DNA of 64,000 nt from Octopus vulgaris (lineage: Eukaryota): assembly GCA_951406725.2 (NCBI GenBank), contig OX597822.1, positions 110,546,001 to 110,610,000 on the forward strand. The letters are read 5' to 3'. The first letter of the stretch is position 1, and each line of letters opens with the position of its first letter. This document shows, one piece after another, positions 9,044 through 57,347 of this stretch. Position numbers and translations under genes: made by a program. The notes beneath the pieces are model-generated. The model worked only from the letters and a program-made list of their open reading frames with translations, was not told the DNA's origin and did not search any database.

Positions 9044-9524
9044 AATATCAGAGAGGACACAGAAAGTGTGCCTAAAGCCAACTGGAGACGATGATCTCCT
9101 GGGACTAAAAGCTACAGTAACACCCACCCTTAGTGGTTAGACATATTGAGATGGTTAGTATACTTTATGTTGTCGAGCCGTTACTGTTTCCATCTCGTTC
9201 AGAGATTTATTATTGCTTGCAGACAGTTTTTCGAAACCAGTGACGAAAGTTACTGGAAAAAACATTAGATAGATATTTGCAAACAGGTCTCTCTTCATCG
9301 AAAACCGGTGATTACCATACGTTGACAAGAGGCAAATACCTCGAAACTGCAGTCCGTGCGTATCACTTAGGTTTACGAGAGAGGGATGACCTCCCTTTGC
9401 AAATATCATAAGGGCACAGAAAGTGTGCCTAAAGCCAGGTGGAGACGATGATCTCCTGGGGCTAAAAGCTACAGTAACACCCACCCTTAGTGGTTAGCCA
9501 TACTGAGATGGCTAGTATACTTTA
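9044..9524 (+). mobile_element. Retrozyme-like element: about 1.3 units of a 357-bp structured monomer with one hammerhead
   Basis: About 120-bp direct terminal repeat (9044-9167 / 9402-9524, offset 357), internal HHR and multiple hairpins, no ORF. Confidence 0.7.
9318..9358 (+). ncRNA. Type I hammerhead ribozyme, U3-A8 core variant, GUC cleavage triplet
   Basis: TACG-TTGACAA-GAGG(CAAATA)CCTC-GAA-ACTGCAGT-C-CGTG: all three helices formable, stem III palindromic. Confidence 0.8.
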
Positions 9525-9698
9525 CAAAATTATAATACTATGAGATAATCCAACATACAAACTGAGAAGTCAAAGCTAAATGATACTGTAACATCTTTTA
9601 TCCTTCACTCGGCCTAGGATGCTGGGTGTGTCTGGGAAATTGATTGCAACACACATGCAGATTAAAAGTAAATAATAATAATAAGAATGATAATAATG

Positions 9699-18406: not shown

Positions 18407-20500
18407 CAAGTTATTTTATTCCGCACGAGTAGAAATATAGGAAAATTAGAAGTTGAAGATGCACTGGGAATAGTCAAAGTAGTTTTTATTATTATATTTA
18501 AAGATTTAATCGGTTTCACACTTTACATTGACTTTCGAAAAGTTGAAATAGAAGAAGCTGTCTTGATTCTGACTTGTGTTTGAAGCTTCCCCTATTTTTA
18601 TAGGGAGTTCATTGCAAAAATTACTGTATGTTTTGAATAAGATATGATTGGTAGAGGACAGTCAAAATTTTGTAGGTTCCTCGCTACATCCGTGTGTTTG
18701 GATGAAGTGAACATATTTCACGTCGTAAGTTAAGGCTAACACGGTTGACTGAACATGTCCAAACAATCAAGGCTCTGAATGTTTTCTGTCAAGTGTTTGT
18801 AAAGAATGAACCCGTGATTAAGTTGAGAACCTTTTGTATGTTTCCCGCTACGTCCATGCGTTAGTGTCACGTGACAGTATATTTTGTGCCTACAAAGACA
18901 CGTTTGAGCGAACATGTTTAGTTTCAATCAAGGCATTCCAAATTGGAGATTGGACAGGAGTTCTTTGAATGTAATTCAGTGGGTAAAATTTCGGCTGTTA
19001 GCTCTGTTGATTTCTCATGTTAAGTGGCAGAATGAATTTTGTATGTGAATAGTTATTTGTTGATGTACACTGTTAAAGTTTGTGAAGACTTGGTTTGTTC
19101 TTTTGTATGAAAATATTTTCTTTGTTTATCCGTGTTTCATGAGTGGTATTCAATGAACATAGGTAGAGTGGGAAGACCTGGAATTTAGGGTACTTTTTTT
19201 TTGTATTTATATCTATGTATCCACTCAGTGGAATCTGTCTAGTTCTGGTGTCTCGTATTTGTTGTCGGTAAATGATCAGTCTATTTCTTAGAGTAAGCTT
19301 TGTTTGACCTGCGTAATCTTGATTACATGCTTGACATTTGATAGCGTATATTAAATTCCCTGACGAACATAAAATGATTTTTTACAGCAAAAATTTGTCC
19401 TGATTTGAATTTGTATGTTGTGTCTTCAATAAGGTTCGCAATTAGTGCGGCCACACATTTTGACTGTTGGTGTAGGAATTGTGGGGCTTTTATTGTCTTT
19501 TACTTTTGATTATTTTATGTATTTCGCAAGTTTATTTCATCCTTGGGTCTTGTTTTAGAAGTAGGATGTTTGGGTGGATAATATTGTAAACCGCTGTTTC
19601 TTCGGTTGTGTGTTGTAATAAAGGGAAGAGTAATGGATGTATCTGGAGCGTTTTCTTCAATATTTATTCCTTAGGCACATTCTACTCCGTTCCCTATTAA
19701 CATTAATGAATATTGTCTTTTAAGTAGTATTTGCTTTAGTTCCTGGAGTCTTTTATTTCGGGATTCAGGGTTTGAAACAGTTGTGCAGATTCTTCTTGCT
19801 AGATTAAAGAGAATATTATTCTTCGTGTGTTTGGGATGGTATGAGAACAGGAAATATTGTTTAGAATTTGTTTGTTCGGAATGAATATCTGTTTCAATGT
19901 TTTTAACTATTTTGATGATTAGTATATCTAGGAATGGTAGTTGAGTTTTAGTGTATTCCATGGCGAAATTGATATTGTCTATGCTGTAGATTACGTTTTT
20001 GGAATCTATAAGTTGTTTAAATGTGTGCATCCATAGGATCAGGCAGTCATTTAGGTAACGATTCCAGTTTTCTAGTAGGAATTTGTGGAAGTTTAAGCCA
20101 TATTTTAATTTAGATTGTTCACATATTTGAACCTCCATATATACCATGACTAGATTGGCGAAATTTGGAACAACTTTTTGCCACATCGCAATCTCAGATA
20201 TTTGTTTGTAAATATTGCCATCGAAGTCAAAAAGTTGTTTTCAAGAATTAACATTAATCCTTCAGTGATGAAACTCTTTTCAATTATGTCCGTAATTTGA
20301 TGAGGGAGATTTTCAAGCCAGAAATTTATTGACTCTAGTCCATATTGGTGTCGATTGTGGCATTGAAGTTTGCCATGTCAAAAGATACAATAGTGGCATT
20401 ATTTATTATTAATGGATTCTGGGAGGTGGTTTAACAGATTCAGGTCGTCCCTTACGAGATTTCGCATACATTTAAAAATAGGTTTAATATATCAAATATC
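18402..20500 (-). mobile_element. Decayed Penelope-like element (RT + GIY-YIG + 3' region)
   Basis: PNFANLVM..., WNRYLNDCLILW, LPFLDILI, HPKHTKNNILFNLARRICT; downstream NLIYAIKCQACNQDYAGQT (GIY-YIG); 3' end homologous to 51750-52275. Confidence 0.88.
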
Positions 20501-23226: not shown

Positions 23227-23439
23227 TACCTACCTACTTACCTACCTACCTACCTACTTACTTTCATACATACATACATACATACATACATACATACATA
23301 CATAAATACATACGTACATACATACATACATACATGAAAGCATCCACAAACCCAACAACCCTGGCCGCCCCATCATCTCCTCCTGTAACTGCCCCACAGA
23401 GCTCATCTCTAAATACCTCGATCGTGTCCTTGCCCCCTA

Positions 23440-24447
23440 GTGGCATCTCTTCCCTCCCACATCCACGATACCAACCATGCTCTCCGGCTTTTCAACTCTT
23501 TCTCCTTTCCTCCCGGCTCCTCCAAAATCCTTTTTACTATGGACATCCAAAGCCTCTATACTGTTATCCCTCACCACGAAGGACTGCAGGCCCTTCGACA
23601 CTTTCTTGACCTCCGCTCTAACCCTGTACCTGACACCTCCACACTCATTCGTCTGGCCGAACTTGTCCTTACTCTGAACTGCTTCTCGTTCGCGGGCGAG
23701 TTCTACCATCAGGTCTCGGGAGTGGCCATGGGAACGCGAATGGGCCCCAACTATGCGAACCTGTTCGTTGGCTATGTTGAGGCCCAAATATTCTCTAATT
23801 TCACTGGTCCCACTCCTGAACTATATGGTCGTTATATTGACGACATTATCGGTGCCACCTCACTCTCCCGCGAACATCTAGATTCCTTCCTCTCTTTCGT
23901 CCAATCTTTCCATCCAGCCCTCCACTTCACTTCCACTATCTCCAACACCTCTGTCTCCTTCCTCGACATTTCGGTTAGCATTCTTCACTCCACTCTTACC
24001 ACCTCCATTCACTACAAACACACAGACTCACACTCATACCTCAACTTCTCTTCCTCCCACCCAGAACACACCAAGCTTTCCATCCCCTATTCCCAATTCC
24101 TCAGTCTACGTAGGCTCTGTAGTGACGACCATGACTTTGAGACTCAGTCTCAACGTATGTCTCACCACTTCACCCTACGTGGATACCCCCTCACCACTAT
24201 CCACACTGCCCTTGCCAGAGCACGGTCCGTGGACCGTGTATCTGCTCTCTCTCCCCGAACCCGCCCTGTAGTCTCCCGCCTCCCTTTTCCCCTCACTTAC
24301 CACCCCACGACCCTACGTCTCCAACGCACCATTCTTCGAGCTTTCCGTCATCTCCAGTCCGACCCGTCCACTTCACACCTCTTCCCTAACCGACCCCCTC
24401 CCCTCTTTCAAACGAGCCCACAACCTTCGAGACCTTTTGGTCCATAG
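23440..24447 (+). CDS. Penelope-like reverse transcriptase (partial, frameshifted at both ends)
   Basis: MDIQSLYTVIP, GVAMGTRMGPNYANLF, RYIDDI, SFLDI, YKHTDSHSYLNFSSSHP, SIPYSQFL motifs. Confidence 0.93.
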   Translation: MASLPSHIHDTNHALRLFNSFSFPPGSSKILFTMDIQSLYTVIPHHEGLQALRHFLDLRSNPVPDTSTLIRLAELVLTLNCFSFAGEFYHQVSGVAMGTRMGPNYANLFVGYVEAQIFSNFTGPTPELYGRYIDDIIGATSLSREHLDSFLSFVQSFHPALHFTSTISNTSVSFLDISVSILHSTLTTSIHYKHTDSHSYLNFSSSHPEHTKLSIPYSQFLSLRRLCSDDHDFETQSQRMSHHFTLRGYPLTTIHTALARARSVDRVSALSPRTRPVVSRLPFPLTYHPTTLRLQRTILRAFRHLQSDPSTSHLFPNRPPPLFQTSPQPSRPFGP

Positions 24448-24890
24448 CTCCTTCCCTGACCCTACCTCCCAACCCGGCTCGTTCCCCTGCTCCCGCCCAC
24501 GTTGCCGCACTTGCCCTTACCTCTCCAACACCACCCGCCTCACTAGCACCCACCATCGACCCTATCCCTTCATCCACTCCTTCACCTGCACCTCCAGCAA
24601 TATTATCTATTGCATCTCTTGCTCTCTCTGCAATTCCTTGTACATCGGACAAACGGGACGCCGCTTGGCTGACCGGTTCGCGGAACACCTTCGTGACATC
24701 CACCTTGCGAACGACACACCGGTCTCACGCCATTTCCGCTCCACCGGTCACTCCTTGCAACACCTATCTGTGTTCGGTTTGTCCTTACACAGAGGCCATC
24801 CGGATTCCCGTTTGCGCCGTGAACGGGAATTAATCTTCTCTCTTCGCTATTATACGCCATTTGGTCTCAACTCTCCCCCCTCCTCATCTA
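24437..24890 (+). CDS. GIY-YIG endonuclease domain of Penelope-like element (frameshifted from RT)
   Basis: CSRPRCRTC linker, NIIYCISCSLCNSLYIGQTGRRLADRFAEH, RLRRERELI, PFGLN. Confidence 0.92.
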
Positions 24891-25580
24891 ACCCCCTCTC
24901 CCCCCTCCTCACCTATCCTTTCTCCCCCCGACCCCTACTTCTTCAGTCCTTCATCCTTTCACCCCTACTCCCCTTCCCTTCTTCCCTCTTTCTCCCTCCC
25001 TCTTCCCCTTCCCTCTGCTCCCTCACTCCCTCTCTCCCCTTCTCTCTCCCCTTCTATCTCCCCTTCTATCTCCCCCTCTCCCTCTTTCCTCCTTCATCCC
25101 CCCTCCTCCCCTTCCTTCTCCCCCCTCCTCTCCTCTTCCCCCTTCTCCTCCCCCTCTTCTTCCCCTCCCCTTCTCTCCCCCTCTTCTCCCTCTCCCCTCT
25201 TCTCCTCACTACACCACATGACTTTACACATCACATCACATATGATGTGCCATACTAATACACACACCAACTAATACATACTAATACGTACTAATACATA
25301 CTAGTACATACTAATACTTACACCAACCCTATACATACACACGTCCAGACCCCGCATACGCACTTATACTCTCTCACACACACACACACACACCTATACA
25401 TACCAATACGTACTAATACATACTAATACATACTAACACATACACCAACCCCATACATACGCACGTCCAGACCAATCCTACGCACTAATACTCTCTCATA
25501 CACACACACACACACACCCTTATACATACTAATACATACACCAACCCTATACATACACACATCCAGACCCCTCCCACGCA
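24890..25580 (+). repeat. Pyrimidine (CT)-rich tract followed by about 3 imperfect tandem units with CTAATACATA subrepeats, inside the PLE 3' region
   Basis: Repeated CACCAACCC(T/C)ATACATAC(A/G)CAC(G/A)TCCAGACC at about 25321, 25443 and 25539. Confidence 0.85.
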
Positions 25581-25754
25581 ATATTAGCTGGTCCCTCAAC
25601 CCTTTTATCAACCCTATTATCTCCCCTTATTTCGCTCTCGCGTCTCATGTTTGATCTTTGACCTCTGGCCGAAATCAGATCGCCATGTTGATTCGTTAGC
25701 TACTGCACGCATTTTTTTTCTCTCCTTCTTTCTGTGTTTTTCTCTCTCTGTGTA

Positions 25755-25792
25755 TCTTTCTGTTGAAGAGCGTAGGCTCGAAACGTTAAAGA
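25755..25792 (+). ncRNA. Minimal hammerhead-like motif (CUGUUGA-A) in the PLE terminus
   Basis: TCTTT-CTGTTGA-A-GAGC(GTAG)GCTC-GAA-ACGT-T-AAAGA. Confidence 0.6.
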
Positions 25793-25891
25793 CTTGTTTT
25801 TATTTATATTTCCTGAGCGCCATACTAATACAATTGTTCGTTTGTTTTCCACCTGCCTTCGTCTTTTTGTTTATTTTCATAAAGCTTCCCG

Positions 25892-25929
<38 letters not shown>

Positions 25930-37258: not shown

Positions 37259-38215
37259 TTACTACAATTGCCGAGGTCGACTTTGCCTTTCATCCTTTCG
37301 TGGTCGATAAATTAAGTTCTAGTTGCGAACTGAGGTCGATCTAATCGAATGGCTTCCTCCCCCAAAATTTCGCGCCTTGTGCCTAGAGTAGAAAAGAATA
37401 TTACTACAACTGCCACGCCGGGCGAAATGCGTAGCCGTATTTCGTCTGCCGTTACGTTCTGAGTTCAAATTCCGCCGAGGACGACTTTGTCTTTCATCCT
37501 TTCGTGGTCGATAAATTAAGTTCTAGTTGCGAACTGAGGTCGATCTAATCGAATGGCTTCCTCCCCCAAAATTTCGCGCCTTGTGCCTAGAGTAGAAAAG
37601 AATATTACTACAACTGCCACGCCGGGCGAAATGCGTAGCCGTATTTCGTCTGCCGTTACGTTCTGAGTTCAAATTCCGCCGAGGACGACTTTGTCTTTCA
37701 TCCTTTCGTGGTCGATAAATTAAGTTCTAGTTGCGAACTGAGGTCGATCTAATCGAATGGCTTCCTCCCCCAAAATTTCGCGCCTTGTGCCTAGAGTAGA
37801 AAAGAATATTACTACAACTGCCACGCCGGGCGAAATGCGTAGCCGTATTTCGTCTGCCGTTACGTTCTGAGTTCAAATTCCGCCGAGGACGACTTTGTCT
37901 TTCATCCTTTCGGGGTCGATAAATTAAGTACCAGTTACGCATTGGCGTCGATGTAATCGACTTAATCCATTTGTATGTCCTTGTTTGTCCTCTCTGTGTT
38001 TATCACCTTGTGGGTAGTAAAGAAATAGAAGTAGTTATTTCGTCTGTCTTTACGTTCTGAGTTCAAATTCCGCCGAAGTCAACTTTGTCTTTCATTCTTT
38101 CGTGGTCGATAAAATTAAGTACCAGTTGCGTACTGAGGTCGATCTAATCGACTGTCCTCTTCCCCCAAAATATCGGGCTTTGTGCCTAGAGTAGAAAAGA
38201 ATATTATTACAATTG
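37259..38215 (+). repeat. Tandem array of SINE family B units, 204-bp period
   Basis: TTACTACAACTGCCACGCCGGG starts at 37401, 37605 and 37809, with partial units on both sides. Confidence 0.95.
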
Positions 38216-50315: not shown

Positions 50316-52275
50316 GCCCTGACAGAATTGAAAAGAATTTCATCACTGAAGGTTTAAAGGTTATTCTCTAAAACAAGTTTTTGACTTCGATGGCAACATT
50401 TACAAATAAACATCTGGGATTGCGATGGGGACAAAAGCTGCTCCAACATACGTCAATCCAGTTATGGCATACGTAGCGGTCCAGTTATACGAACAATCTA
50501 AATTAAAATATGGCTTGAACTGCCACAAATATCTACTAGAAAATTGGAAACGTTACTTAGATCACTGCCTAATCCTATGGACGCACACATTTGTACAGCT
50601 TATAGATTTAAAAAAATCTAATTAACAGCATAAACAATAATATTAATTTTATCATAGAACTCTGTAAAACGCAACTGCTATTCCTGGATATATTAATCAT
50701 TAAAATAGCTAAAAAAAATTAATACAGACATTCACTAGAAACAGATTCTAAACAATACTTTTTGTTCTCCTCATATAATTCCAAACAAACGAAGAATAAT
50801 ATTCCATTTAATCTGACAAGAGGAATCTGCATAACTGTCTCAAACTCTGAAACTCGAAATAAAAGACTACAGGAGCTAAAACAGATACTACTTAAAAGTT
50901 TATATGCATTAATGTTAATAGACAGCGGAATAGAATGTGCCAAAGCAGTAAATATTGAAGAACCACAGAAAACTAAAAACACTCCAGATACATCCAATAC
51001 TCGAACCTTTATTACACACAGAGGTTTACAACATTATCCCCCAGAACATCCCACTAGTTAAACAAGATTCAAGAATGAAACAAGCATGCGAAATGCACAA
51101 AATAATGAAAAGTAAAAGATAAAGTCCCTCAAAAACATCCTCACAAGTGCTAAATTACCTTCCACAATTCCTACAGCAACAGTCAAAAGTATGGCCGCCC
51201 AAATTTCAGGAATTATGGATGATACAACATATAAATTCAAGTCAGGACAGATTTTTACCGTAGAAAAGACACTTTAAATATTCTTTCAGGAATTTATTAT
51301 ACGCTATCAAATGTCAGGAATGTAATGAAGATTACATACGTCAAATAAAGCTCATTCAAAGAAAAAGACTGATCGTTAACCGACAGCAAATACTCGACCT
51401 CAGTACTAGACAGATTTCACTGAGTGGACACATAGACATATGTGCACAAATTAAGTCCACCATATCCCAGGTATTCCCACTCTACCTATGTGCAGCGAAT
51501 GCGACAGATTAAGCACAGATAATCAAAGAAAATACTTTCATACAAATCTATGAACCAAGACTTCCCAAACTCGAACGAGTACAAACACAAATAACTATTG
51601 ACACTCGAAACTCAATCCGGTACTTAAAATCCCATACATTCTGCCACTGGATTACATACAAACGACTCCTGTCCACTCTCCCACAAACAAGGATTAAGTT
51701 TGGAGTGCTTTGATTGTAACTAAACATATTCACTCAACCGGGTCGGTCCTCTTTTTAGGCACAAAGTATGCTGTTACGTAGCACTAACACACGAACATAT
51801 CGGGAGACTTACGAAAGATTATACATTTAATTATGTGTTAATTCTCTACAAAACACTTGACAGAAAGCATTTAGAGCATTGACAGTTTGAACACGCTCAC
51901 TCAACCGTGTCAGCCTTAACTTACGACGGCAAACATCGTCACTTGATACTAAAATACGGACGTAGCAGGCAGCCTACAAAAATTTCTAAGACCAGTCATG
52001 TGACTAACCTCTACAAATCAAATCCTATTCAAAGCATATAGTAATCTGAGCCATGAACTCCCTATAAAAACAGGGAAAGCTTCAAACTCCAGTCGGGACC
52101 AAGACAGCTGCCATATATGCCATGTCTTTCTATTTTAACTTTTGGAATGTCAATGTAAAATGTGAAACCGGTTAATGCTTTAAATGCATGAATAAAAATT
52201 ATTTTAATTATTCTCAGTGCATTTTCAACTACTTCTTCTATATTTCTACCCGCGTGGCATAAAATTACTTTGTTA
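50316..52275 (+). mobile_element. Decayed Penelope-like element (RT + GIY-YIG + terminus), same family as 18402-20500
   Basis: GIAMGTKAAPTYVN, WKRYLDHCLILW, NIPFNLTRGIC, YYAIKCQECNEDYIRQ; TATAAAA and a degenerate HHR (GAAACCGGTT, about 52165) in the 3' region. Confidence 0.88.
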
Positions 52276-53995: not shown

Positions 53996-54201
53996 TTGTA
54001 AAATCAAAATCGCCTTTTTTATAAATATAAATGCATTTATTTTTAAATGAACCTCAGAAACCTGGAAAAGATTGTTATAGGACAAACATTTCGATAGAAG
54101 CATAAGGTTTAATTTCATTATAATTTCGGACAAGTATATAAAACCAAATTGTGTCATATGATTTCAGAGGGCGATATAGAAAATTACTGAGCCTTCATTT
54201 C

Positions 54202-54427
54202 ATTGTTTGCCAACATAGCATAGCAGTCCTGGTTTAGGACGAACGTTGCTGTAATTTAAGCCCCAGGAAACATCGTCTCCAGCTGGCTATACGACACGAT
54301 CTGTGTCCTTATATTTTCCTACAAAGAAATCTTGCATCTCCTGGCAGCTCAAAACAATATCTGTGTATCACGATTTCCGGGTTATTTCCCTTTACCAGTA
54401 CAGAATAATTGTTCGGCTAGAGGCAAA
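54202..54427 (-). mobile_element. Retrozyme-like unit (family 2), HHR at 54360-54404
   Basis: Reverse complement of 56014-56238; TCTGTA-CTGGTAA-A-GGG(AAATAA)CCC-G-GAA-ATCGTGAT-A-CACAGA (core degenerate in this copy). Confidence 0.75.
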
Positions 54428-55380
54428 TTCCTTATTACAATAATGAATATCACATAAAGAGTGGACAATACAGGACAATACACACAAATAATGTTATGAT
54501 AAGTTCGAATATAACTTATGGATTAAAAATATTGATGAAAGATATATATAATATATTCTAAGTTTAGGTTTTTGTGGGCATTATACTCGGTTGCCTCGAA
54601 GGCCCAGCGGCTATTCCTTTCCTTTTTCAAACGAGGATTAAGTAGGGTTATTTGCACCCACCTTTCTTGTCACAGCCTTCCATTTTACTCGAGCTCACTT
54701 TGTGACAGAATTCTCCTCTCCAGCCCTACCGTGCTCTTCAGATGGTGTCTGAACTATAGAAGCAGACCAGGCCCAGAGATGAAGGTTCCCGCCACGAGTC
54801 CTTGCATTCTAGTCTTCCACACGCATTATTTCAATACTGCAACTGTACAGAGGAAACATGCCTCAACTTCCGTTGAGAGTCCAATTGGCGATACAAACAT
54901 TATTATCGATTCAGCTGATAGCTGTTCTCTTCCTAGGTGTGACAATACGTGCTCAACGTAAATTATCAGGCCTGACAGCTTCCAACATTGTACAAGAGCG
55001 TGCTGTACGGTTTCCTCGTCCAGCCTACATCCTGGACATGTCGATGGCACTGACATTCCGTGCTTGGATGACATCTCGCGAACAGGTAAAGCGTTCCTAT
55101 AACACTGCTAGGTCAGGGATGTTTGGTAATTATCCAAATACCCTGGGCTGAAAATTTTTGAAAAAGGTTGGCAAGTTGGTTCTCGTCGAAACCCAGGACG
55201 TCATCGTTTTTACTCTCTGCCAGCCCTTTGTACAAAACCGAGATAGTATTCCCACTGCCGGCCTTGCCCGTCTTGTGGATAAGCACGAGTGCCTGTCGAC
55301 ACTCGTTTTGCCACTCAGTCAGATTACGTCTTTTAATGAAACCGGGTTTGAATCTCTCCAAGGAGGCTGGTCGCGGTAAG
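54428..55380 (-). mobile_element. Tx1/L1-clade LINE 3' fragment (ORF2 C-terminus + 3' UTR)
   Basis: CYRNALPVREMSSKHG...TCPGCRLDEETVQHALVQC (CCHC zinc knuckle)...CVWKTR, typical of Tx1/L1 ORF2 ends. Confidence 0.82.
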
Positions 55381-55689
55381 AATTCTTTCGCCTTATTGAA
55401 AGGTGTTAGAAAGGATATGGTAGATAAGCTTGTGCAATGGAAAGATGTAAAAGTGATAGACATGAAGGGAACGAAAACAGAAAAAATGGTTTTAGGCGCA
55501 TTGCTGCCAAGACACAGGATTAAAATAATAAGAAACGGTAAAGAAAGCGCAGAATACAGACAAATAGTATCGATATAAATGAAGTTCCGGACGGTATAGA
55601 TTATTATAAATTACTGGGCCTAATCAGCATTAACTTTAATTGGATATGAAAGGACGATAATGATGCTGCTGAGATGAGGTAAGTGGCAC

Positions 55690-55810
55690 ATCCTTCATAT
55701 ATCATTATCATGTATCATTCATATTTTTATAATTTTATTTTAATTGTTATATGTCCCCATATGTCTTGTGCTGTCCCCTCTATGTATGATATTTTTATCG
55801 TAATAAATAA
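55690..55810 (+). mobile_element. Second Tx1-like 3' UTR fragment
   Basis: TGTCTTGTGCTGTCCCCTCTATGTATGATATTTTTATCGTAATAAATAA aligns with the reverse complement of 54428-54477; left boundary uncertain. Confidence 0.6.
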
Positions 55811-55833
55811 TTTACCTCTAGCCGAACAATTAT

Positions 55834-55878
55834 TCTGTGTTGATGAAGGGAAATAACCCGGAAATCGTGATACACAGA
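55834..55878 (+). ncRNA. Type I hammerhead ribozyme (UUGAUGA core)
   Basis: TCTGTG-TTGATGA-A-GGG(AAATAA)CCC-G-GAA-ATC(GT)GAT-A-CACAGA; perfect 6-bp stem I. Confidence 0.75.
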
Positions 55879-56036
55879 TATTGTTTTAAGCTGAGTAGGG
55901 ATGCTAGATTCCCTTGTTCCAAAATATAAGGACACAGATCATGTCGTATAGCCAGCTGGAGACGATGTTTCCTGGGGCTAAATTATGTTTTACCTCTAAT
56001 AAATAATAAATAATTTACCTCTGGCCGAACAACTAT

Positions 56037-56081
56037 TCTGTACTGGTGAAGGGAAATAACCCAGAAATCGTGATACACAGA
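56037..56081 (+). ncRNA. Type I hammerhead ribozyme motif (CUGGUGA core)
   Basis: TCTGTA-CTGGTGA-A-GGG(AAATAA)CCC-A-GAA-ATCGTGAT-A-CACAGA. Confidence 0.68.
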
Positions 56082-57347
56082 TATTCTTTTAAGCTGAGTG
56101 GGGATCCCAGATTCCCTTATAGGAGAATATAAGGACACAGATCGTGTCTTATAGCTAGCTGGAGACGATGTCTTCTGGGGCTAAATTACATCAACATTCG
56201 TCCTAAACCAGGACTGCCATGCTATGTTGGCAAACAATCTTTACTCCAAAGTACTGTTGCTGAATATCTCTCGAGAGATTTTAAAATAGTAATTTTCTAA
56301 CTTCATTTCATTATTCCGAATAATTTTTTTCCCAAAATCTGACTATTCACTGTTAGTACGTAATTTTCCTACTTTCGCATTTGAAATCTATTGAAATGGT
56401 CTCTAATTTCGAACTTTACATGAAATACTAATGGTATACTAGTGGTGTACTGTACAGCGATCGACTGCATTCCTTTTCTGATTATACCTAGTCCGATATC
56501 ATACCTAGTTCGTAGCCATTATTTCATCCGCCTTCAGTCAGTAACATAAAGGCTGCAGTTCTGAAGCTGATTAAATCGGCACAGAATCTAATGTGTGTAG
56601 CCGGGGGTACAAAATTTAGAAGCAATTGTTATATCGTTTCAGGAACTTGTATCCAACATGTAACATCATTAAATATTAATGTGCTGAAAACTGTCTGTAA
56701 CAATTAGATAATTTTAATTAGATTTTTCCTAATACAAAGTCGCCATTATTGAAAGTGTATTATGCTAGGCTGAACAACAATATATCAAACGTTGGTGAAA
56801 CACATGTACGATACGTGTACATTGTACTAAACAATAAGTGTCAAAATGTTTATCATCATCAATAAGTCTTACAGAATATTTTTAGTTTTGTACGAGCGAA
56901 GGAGATGAAGTAATAACATAACATTTTCTACAGAACAAGTTATTAACAGTTAATAAGCTTTAGTACAATGTAAATGGTTAGATGGCTCCTGAAGTAGAAC
57001 ATTTCTCTCATAATATTTGGATCCGTGTCGACCTGTGTTCAAACCCTGCTTACTCTACTATTAGCAAAATAGCGACTGATTATATTACAAAGCACGCTTG
57101 GAAGTTTCACCTTTACACAGTCCTTCGCAATCCTTTAGCCAGCATCCATTCCCTTTTATGGGCTAAAATGTGTGTGTAATTATTGCTCTTTATCTACTCG
57201 TTGCTTGTATTCCCCATTAAACCCCTTATCTGTTAGGGCTCATGAATCATACCGGGTATATTTTTAACTCCTGAACTCTGGAAGCCAGAAAAAAAAATGG
57301 TGTGTATTACTTTTCAGAATAAGTAAAAAAAAATCAAAAAGTACATA

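Follow-up and report, generated by a model that had tools for sequence, protein, structure and literature searches.

Two stretches of the window analyzed here (64,000 nucleotides of an Octopus vulgaris contig, OX597822.1), at 9412-9516 and 56132-56235, fold into similar series of hairpins downstream of hammerhead motifs, which raises the question of what the shared structure is and what it does. The original prediction saw in it a four-hairpin domain held in common by two retrozyme families and perhaps acting in reverse transcriptase (RT) recruitment, ligation or stability. The likeness of the two stretches turns out to be plain homology, since 73 of 101 aligned bases are identical, and it is the whole monomer, not a separate domain, that is homologous. 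The hammerheads upstream do differ in sequence as described, yet they are homologous type I motifs in the same place in the monomer.

Retrozyme families and the insertions in the window

The elements at these two places, which we call families A and B (Table 1), are homologous type I hammerhead retrozymes of ~355 nt. A first look at the 2.8-Gb, microsatellite-rich genome assembly gave 1517 candidates for family A and 2183 for family B, 40 of each being scored. A profile run over the fetched loci added families C, E and F (2709, 1226 and 1195 first-look candidates), a family H and the single copies D, G, I and K. The structured module was found in about ten related families of this genome, a count of those met in the fetched loci that may miss families beyond them, and its identity among the five families with a consensus (A, B, C, E and F) is 63-72%. 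Diverged copies at L120:496-649 (minus strand), L170:992-1144 and L127:3061-3118 may mark further families.

Tandem loci gave monomers of 353-361 nt, each with one type I hammerhead at the same position in all. Copies of families A and B are 3´-anchored, 5´-truncated and frequently head-to-head. Hammerhead cores and stems are present in the consensus of A, B, C and E and can also be read in copies of family H; the consensus hammerheads class as type I and are predicted to self-cleave. The core is of the U3-A8 form in the consensus of A and C, and is decayed in the window copies of family B. Such U3-A8 covariation is known from the hammerheads of Penelope-like elements (PLEs; PMC4209133; this and the other sources, apart from Frangieh et al., 2024, are cited for the sections available to us). 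No retroelement protein accompanies the module: tblastn with two PLE proteins against 120 module loci returned a single match, an unrelated PLE on the opposite strand, and did not find the RT and GIY-YIG ORF of an autonomous PLE in these loci. No residual coding signal was evident on reading the module. By every testable criterion (hammerhead, tandem monomers within the short range of about 170-400 nt, no protein), the elements are non-LTR retrozymes.

Family A was also present in assembled contigs of runs with four different organism codes, and joints going back 354 nt were seen in 4/4 runs; contigs of this kind are silent on transcription, circles and strand. A pattern scan of metagenomes gave 0 matches. 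In families E and F, for example at loci L153 and L134, the interval between hammerhead and hairpin 1 holds a GGGG-UUCGCU-CCCC segment, which we take to resemble a tRNA T-arm or B-box and which could bear on transcription of the elements.

Table 1. Features of the family A and family B insertions, in window positions
Feature	Position	Strand	Basis
Family A retrozyme insertion, partial tandem of ~1.3 monomers, 5´-truncated, ending at the short 3´ end	9053..9526	+	alignment, family search
First module copy, complete including tail, long end near 9217	9055..9217	+	P3 forms in fold of copy
Long-range stem P3 in first copy	9114-9121 with 9180-9187	+	fold
Hairpin 5 of first copy	9192-9206	+	fold
Hairpin 6; same place in families B, C, E	9237..9256	+	fold
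Type I hammerhead, core UUGACAA (U3-A8 variant, as in family consensus), predicted cut after 9354	9316..9360	+	sequence
Hairpin 1	9412..9430	+	fold
Hairpin 2, near-invariant AGCU/UGG internal loop	9433..9463	+	fold, conservation
P3 5´ strand (original "linker"); partner absent from 9412 copy	9471..9478	+	fold
Hairpin 3; deleted in family F	9481..9493	+	fold
Hairpin 4, GCCA/UGGC stem nearly invariant	9495..9514	+	fold, alignment
Short 3´ end, foot of small hairpin 4b; putative first RT start	9518..9526	+	end mapping
12-bp target-site duplication	54190..54201 (left copy); directly after 56300 (right copy)	.	flank comparison
Family B copy, short-ended arm of head-to-head insertion; hammerhead core decayed (54392-54398)	54202..54423	-	alignment
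3´ part of L1/Tx1-type LINE (zf-RVT, AATAAA tail), joined to retrozyme ~25 nt 5´ of hammerhead core	54425..55391	-	Pfam, junction
Second LINE tail, abutting other arm at same site	~55748-55813	+	junction
Family B copy, long-ended arm, local 203-bp duplication, both hammerhead cores decayed	55815..56300	+	alignment, fold
Long-ended arm hairpin 1	56133-56148	+	fold
Long-ended arm hairpin 2	56153-56182	+	fold
Long-ended arm P3 position	56189-56196 with 56255-56262	+	stem not formed: substitution in strand
Long-ended arm hairpin 3	56200-56214	+	fold
Long-ended arm hairpin 4	56215-56232	+	fold
Long-ended arm hairpin 4b	56242-56253	+	fold
Long-ended arm hairpin 5	56266-56279	+	fold

The 9412 copy is incomplete, ending ~50 nt before full copies do. 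The family B copies at 56132 and 54205 are not independent of each other, being the two arms of one 2.1-kb head-to-head unit (54190-56312) with LINE sequence between them and a 12-bp duplication. Upstream retrozyme sequence is not evident between the arms, and ~350 nt (55392-55747) lie between the two LINE segments. PLE machinery may have copied it from a chimeric LINE-retrozyme RNA; alternatively, it may reflect two later LINE insertions with a deletion.

The window holds other repeats as well. A Neptune-type PLE that is young and highly abundant is represented by a 5´-truncated copy at 23366-25893 (plus strand), with a minimal hammerhead near 25760-25790; this PLE has 18045 first-look candidates, with open frames of >1100 aa elsewhere. 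Two old, broken Neptune-type copies of another family are at 19070-20488 (minus strand) and 50380-51572 (plus strand), and 37270-37960 contains 3.4 tandem copies of a 204-bp unit that are 97% identical and related to a common dispersed repeat.

The predicted fold and its covariation

The four hairpins first described at 9412-9516 and 56132-56235 fold as written (z = -2.3 and -2.75 against 200 shuffles), and the third copy, the reverse complement of 54205-54310, folds less well (z = -1.7) and adopts an alternative fold. Four hairpins understate the module, which has at least six together with a long-range stem. TACAG(T/C)AAC, regarded originally as a linker, pairs with a downstream strand, held in the tail that the 9412 copy lacks, to form this stem, P3; it encloses hairpins 3 and 4, together with the small hairpin 4b, in a junction, after which comes hairpin 5. 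Separate folds of the five family consensuses gave the same topology, with P3 pair probabilities of 0.85-1.0 in A, 0.81-1.0 in B, 0.9-1.0 in E, 0.62-0.72 in F and ~0.5 in C. In the predicted folds of four whole circular monomers the P3 probabilities are 0.87, 0.99, 0.74 and 0.97. Family F has lost hairpin 3 and kept P3. Hairpin 1 of A and hairpin 5 of E are present in the folds despite motif look-up probabilities of zero, which reflect an imperfect consensus. The circular monomers fold into a rod of ~50 bp with the hammerhead at one end and the module at the other, and it is the whole monomer, not the module alone, that keeps one architecture. Mean identity by monomer bin is highest in hairpin 2 (71%), where the AGCU/UGG internal loop lies within the best-conserved sequence of the monomer, and is 64% in the hairpin 4-4b region and 37-51% along the rod.

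Covariation had been claimed from two families. For that pair there is little of it: hairpin 2 hardly differs, GCCA/UGGC is retained in hairpin 4, and hairpin 3 is not alignable in one register. The signal emerges with the added families. When 34 copies are aligned on sequence alone, 82% of the cells pair, compared with 32-43% in slid controls, and two-sided changes fall in 7 of 8 helices and in 23 of 44 pairs, 6 of the 8 in P3 included, a count reached by 12 of 500 shuffles; the structure scored was drawn from the same sequences, and the cells count copies of about seven lineages, not events. Two-sided changes rise to 36 of 44 pairs on 85 model-aligned matches, and reading the family sequences in one register gives 5 of 8 P3 positions changed on both sides. 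RNAalifold recovered 11 pairs and not the architecture from the sequence-only alignment, which is misregistered.

The behavior of P3 varies among copies and tests. The cognate partner is the best one for 3 of 5 linkers, those of A and C pairing better with the B strand. P3 did not fold in the single copies of D and G and stayed below 0.5 in H, the family F strand took another partner in a sub-fold, and shuffled-tail controls matched P3 in 3-24 of 60 trials for copies other than D and G. The module matched no Rfam family (window at E<=1; seven loci at E<=10), in scans that missed the hammerheads too and were thus of limited sensitivity. Taken together, the comparisons, when extended beyond the first two families, support an RNA structure that is conserved and covaries in hammerhead retrozymes, and on this modeling we regard the fold as real and undescribed, within a known class of element.

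Insertion ends and the role of the fold

All five families have two 3´ end sites, one in hairpin 4b within the junction and the other 45-55 nt (~50 nt) downstream. Insertion ends spread over several bases at each site, and both keep their place in the fold from family to family. Head-to-head insertions account for 62 of 117 distinct loci (120 fetched minus 3 duplicates). They combine a long with a short end in 54 cases and two long ends in 5, with none having two short ends and 3 being other or unclear. These counts carry a bias from the queries: those for A and B stopped at the short end, with which short-short pairs would have shown (0 of 38), and those for C, E and F included the tail, with which long-long pairs would have shown (2 of 24).

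Target-site duplications, scored as a shared flank of at least 7 nt, are present in 27 of the 33 long-short loci tested (from 34 of families A and B), compared with a mean of 0.95 for shuffled flanks; three of them are TA runs. The inferred duplications are ~9-16 bp long, and the flanks at short ends have an AT content of 78% vs 63%. In a comparison of whether one template or two supplied the arms, differences shared from arm to arm number 2/19 in A, 4/137 in B and 5/31 in C, the values between insertions being 0/167, 63/2430 and 7/242. The combination of inverted copy, one-sided tail and duplication is the "tail" pattern of PLEs, and ties retrozymes to PLE-type integration. We also considered LINE-driven mobilization of the retrozymes and rejected it: poly(A) is absent, and both the tail and the inversion are of the PLE kind.

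These features could be explained as follows. Non-autonomous hammerhead retrozymes would be mobilized in trans by a PLE RT-endonuclease. The ~355-nt RNA would take the shape of a long rod that ends on one side in the hammerhead and on the other in a multibranch head, which comprises hairpins 1 and 2, the junction (hairpins 3, 4 and 4b, enclosed by P3) and hairpins 5-6. The PLE protein would bind this head as its cis-element and find there two internal starts, the one at hairpin 4b within the junction, the other beyond hairpin 5, ~50 nt downstream. AT-rich DNA would be cut by the endonuclease in a staggered fashion, and the two nicked ends would prime separately, one using the short site and one the long site. 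The resulting insertions would be 5´-truncated and in many cases head-to-head, with a tail on a single arm and a duplication of ~9-16 bp. We infer that the copying enzyme is a PLE protein, that it binds the fold and that the RNA is produced and circularized; the two ends would be RT starts by analogy with the Anolis PLE, PAc, discussed below.

A helper was sought in a Pfam GIY-YIG scan of the genome, in 40 longer stretches and in 30 copies of the abundant Neptune family of the window. None of 88 distinct GIY-YIG loci, which are nearly all Neptune-type and include no Poseidon-type, is an autonomous PLE with the module; only unrelated insertions lie nearby. The 3´ ends of three Neptune elements are AU-rich, unlike the module, and the published Naiad_Ovul end is without it in a by-eye comparison. 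These results weigh against the explanation above, in which the helper is the main gap. Either the helper is unsampled or recruitment is by shape. Several candidate partners were set aside. At loci L099 and L095 the module next to a PLE ORF turned out to have inserted separately, and two family E pairs 2.3-2.8 kb apart, possible pLTR-ORF-pLTR arrangements, have a LINE between them. The scan also brought out a young Neptune family (loci L091-L098 and L107) with CCAAT-rich pLTR repeats, a U3-A8 minimal hammerhead and a 781-aa RT-EN frame, which is preceded by an overlapping frame of 330-480 aa in another phase.

As to what the fold does, we lean, with modest confidence, toward an RNA element that draws in the PLE reverse transcriptase in trans and fixes where it starts. 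Among the three roles originally put forward for a functional RNA module, RT recruitment fits best because both insertion 3´ ends map onto the fold. Ligation fits poorly: the hammerhead cut site is across the ~50-bp rod from the module, and published retrozymes are circularized mainly by RtcB (PMC7229834). Selection could instead act on the life of the RNA circle (stability, a free hammerhead, host-protein binding or export), with the PLE starting at local sequences inside the fold. Retrozyme circles are abundant and highly self-paired (PMC7229834), the one architecture belongs to the whole monomer and the sampled autonomous PLE ends lack such a fold, all of which this explanation would accommodate. 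It does not account as well for the concentration of conservation in hairpin 2 and hairpin 4-4b over the rod, or for the fixed place of both ends in the fold across five families, and we consider it unlikely, if deserving of serious weight.

The element might also act as DNA, whether as an internal promoter, which dispersed copies require, or through hairpins and tail that serve the endonuclease or the cDNA during second-strand synthesis. The Drosophila virilis Penelope endonuclease required the tail on DNA (as cited in PMC11167929), and G-U cells do not exceed A-C cells (85 vs 86), leaving no strand signature of RNA-level selection; CpG decay and misalignment blur that count, however. A promoter has no need of two-sided changes in six stems, and the polarity of the module matches the hammerhead strand in every family, so an action as DNA seems improbable. 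More doubtful still is that the likeness reflects shared ancestry only, the hairpins being inherited, unselected palindromes. The first two families are indeed 72% identical with few two-sided changes between them, and folding z-scores of single copies are modest (-0.8 to -2.8), but stems still pair across families that are 63-72% identical, the two-sided changes reach nearly every helix and separate folds arrive at the same topology. We give least credence to the junction being a second, undescribed self-cleaving or processing RNA that makes the 3´ ends. A four-way junction near a near-invariant internal loop would look ribozyme-like in outline; the ends are dispersed, though, the Rfam scans described above, which passed over the hammerheads too, matched nothing, and one long plus one short end per insertion fits two primings rather than cleavage.

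Beyond recruitment of the PLE reverse transcriptase by the fold, a wider reading can be offered tentatively, as a possibility that we rate as rather doubtful in its entirety. Retrozymes could be long-lived, satellite-like RNA circles, not leftover pLTRs, whose own conserved fold, through its shape and not through any sequence resemblance to a helper, recruits the PLE reverse transcriptase, a relative of telomerase, and offers it two starts, one per strand of the staggered cut. They could carry upstream foreign RNA with them, such as the LINE piece of the 2.1-kb insertion, and serve in turn as the fixed target of a Tx1-like LINE.

Relation to known elements

The LINE found in the family B unit represents an L1/Tx1-type LINE present at one fixed site, ~25 nt 5´ of the hammerhead core, in several retrozyme families. 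The module directly follows 25 of 30 LINE 3´ ends (that of the query included), and of the remainder 3 begin with the target motif and 2 do not; for comparison, 362 kb of PLE loci contained three copies of the module. Duplications of 13-15 bp flank two copies (loci L171 and L172), and tandem re-insertion was also seen among the LINE loci (L171, L172, L173 and L205-L234). A LINE inside a retrozyme dimer would be flanked by two hammerheads. The protein has Pfam domains RVT_1 and zf-RVT, and from its layout the LINE is presumably of Tx1 type. Tx1 elements target other transposons and snRNA genes, and target-specific members such as Tx1L (into Tx1D), Tx1-Mar and Keno resemble the LINE here in their fixed site in a repeated element and duplication of ~13-15 bp (PMC4494074, in the parts available). 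The difference lies in the target, a hammerhead retrozyme, with our clade label drawn from protein layout. In a mostly open-access literature we found no published link of "retrozyme" and "Tx1", and a LINE targeting retrozymes would extend the targets of site-specific LINEs by a new class.

Metazoan non-LTR retrozymes share with these elements a type I hammerhead, tandem monomers of ~350-360 nt and no PLE protein homology (PMC7229834; Li et al., 2026, bioRxiv 10.64898/2026.07.22.740005), mussel monomers measuring 350-390 nt (PMC7229834). Their mobilization by PLE or LINE has been proposed (Cervera and de la Pena, 2020, PMC7229834), as has, on sequence, their derivation from PLE pLTRs (Li et al., 2026). 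Published descriptions, in the main-text sections available, give minimum-energy folds and pLTR sequence likeness, without a conserved covarying fold, a two-end rule or duplications; a similar mussel fold may be in the supplement of PMC7229834. In the octopus, by comparison, most copies are dispersed, truncated and head-to-head, and we found no related pLTR among the 88 GIY-YIG loci. We found no published account of this fold in the mostly open-access literature, and Repbase entries may hold these elements as unnamed Penelope derivatives.

The comparison bears on how animal retrozymes enter new sites and on which RNA signal the PLE reverse transcriptase recognizes. Support for retrozyme mobilization has come, in the sources available, from co-occurrence, pLTR likeness and one PLE studied in vitro with a 172-nt window and no structure. 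The present data add insertion scars that link retrozymes directly to PLE-type integration, and a covarying predicted fold with both ends mapped, in about ten diverged families. The fold yields specific mutants that are testable in the existing assay, and a compact, portable RNA handle for the PLE reverse transcriptase would matter for RNA-templated insertion tools.

PLE insertions in general share with the retrozymes the inverted 5´ copy, the tail at one end and the target-site duplication (Arkhipova, 2013, PMC3846280; Craig, 2021, PMC8557442); PLEs also have a microsatellite bias, and their pLTRs suffice in cis for mobilization in trans (same sources). The elements here differ from PLEs in having no RT or GIY-YIG ORF, canonical instead of minimal hammerheads and a GC-richer, structured 3´ region. 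The closest parallel that we can draw, likened by description, is to PAc, a Poseidon PLE of Anolis, in which two internal RT starts, one of them in a stem-loop, define the tail downstream of the hammerhead, with extension of both strands and mostly uncleaved RNA as template (Frangieh et al., 2024, PMC11167929). Unlike in the retrozymes, the region is coding in PAc (the first 172 nt of the ORF), and the main text describes no conserved multi-helix fold. PAc nevertheless has the same outline as the octopus elements: a hammerhead upstream, two end or start sites with a tail between them (45-55 nt here vs 30-40 nt described) and AT-rich targets.
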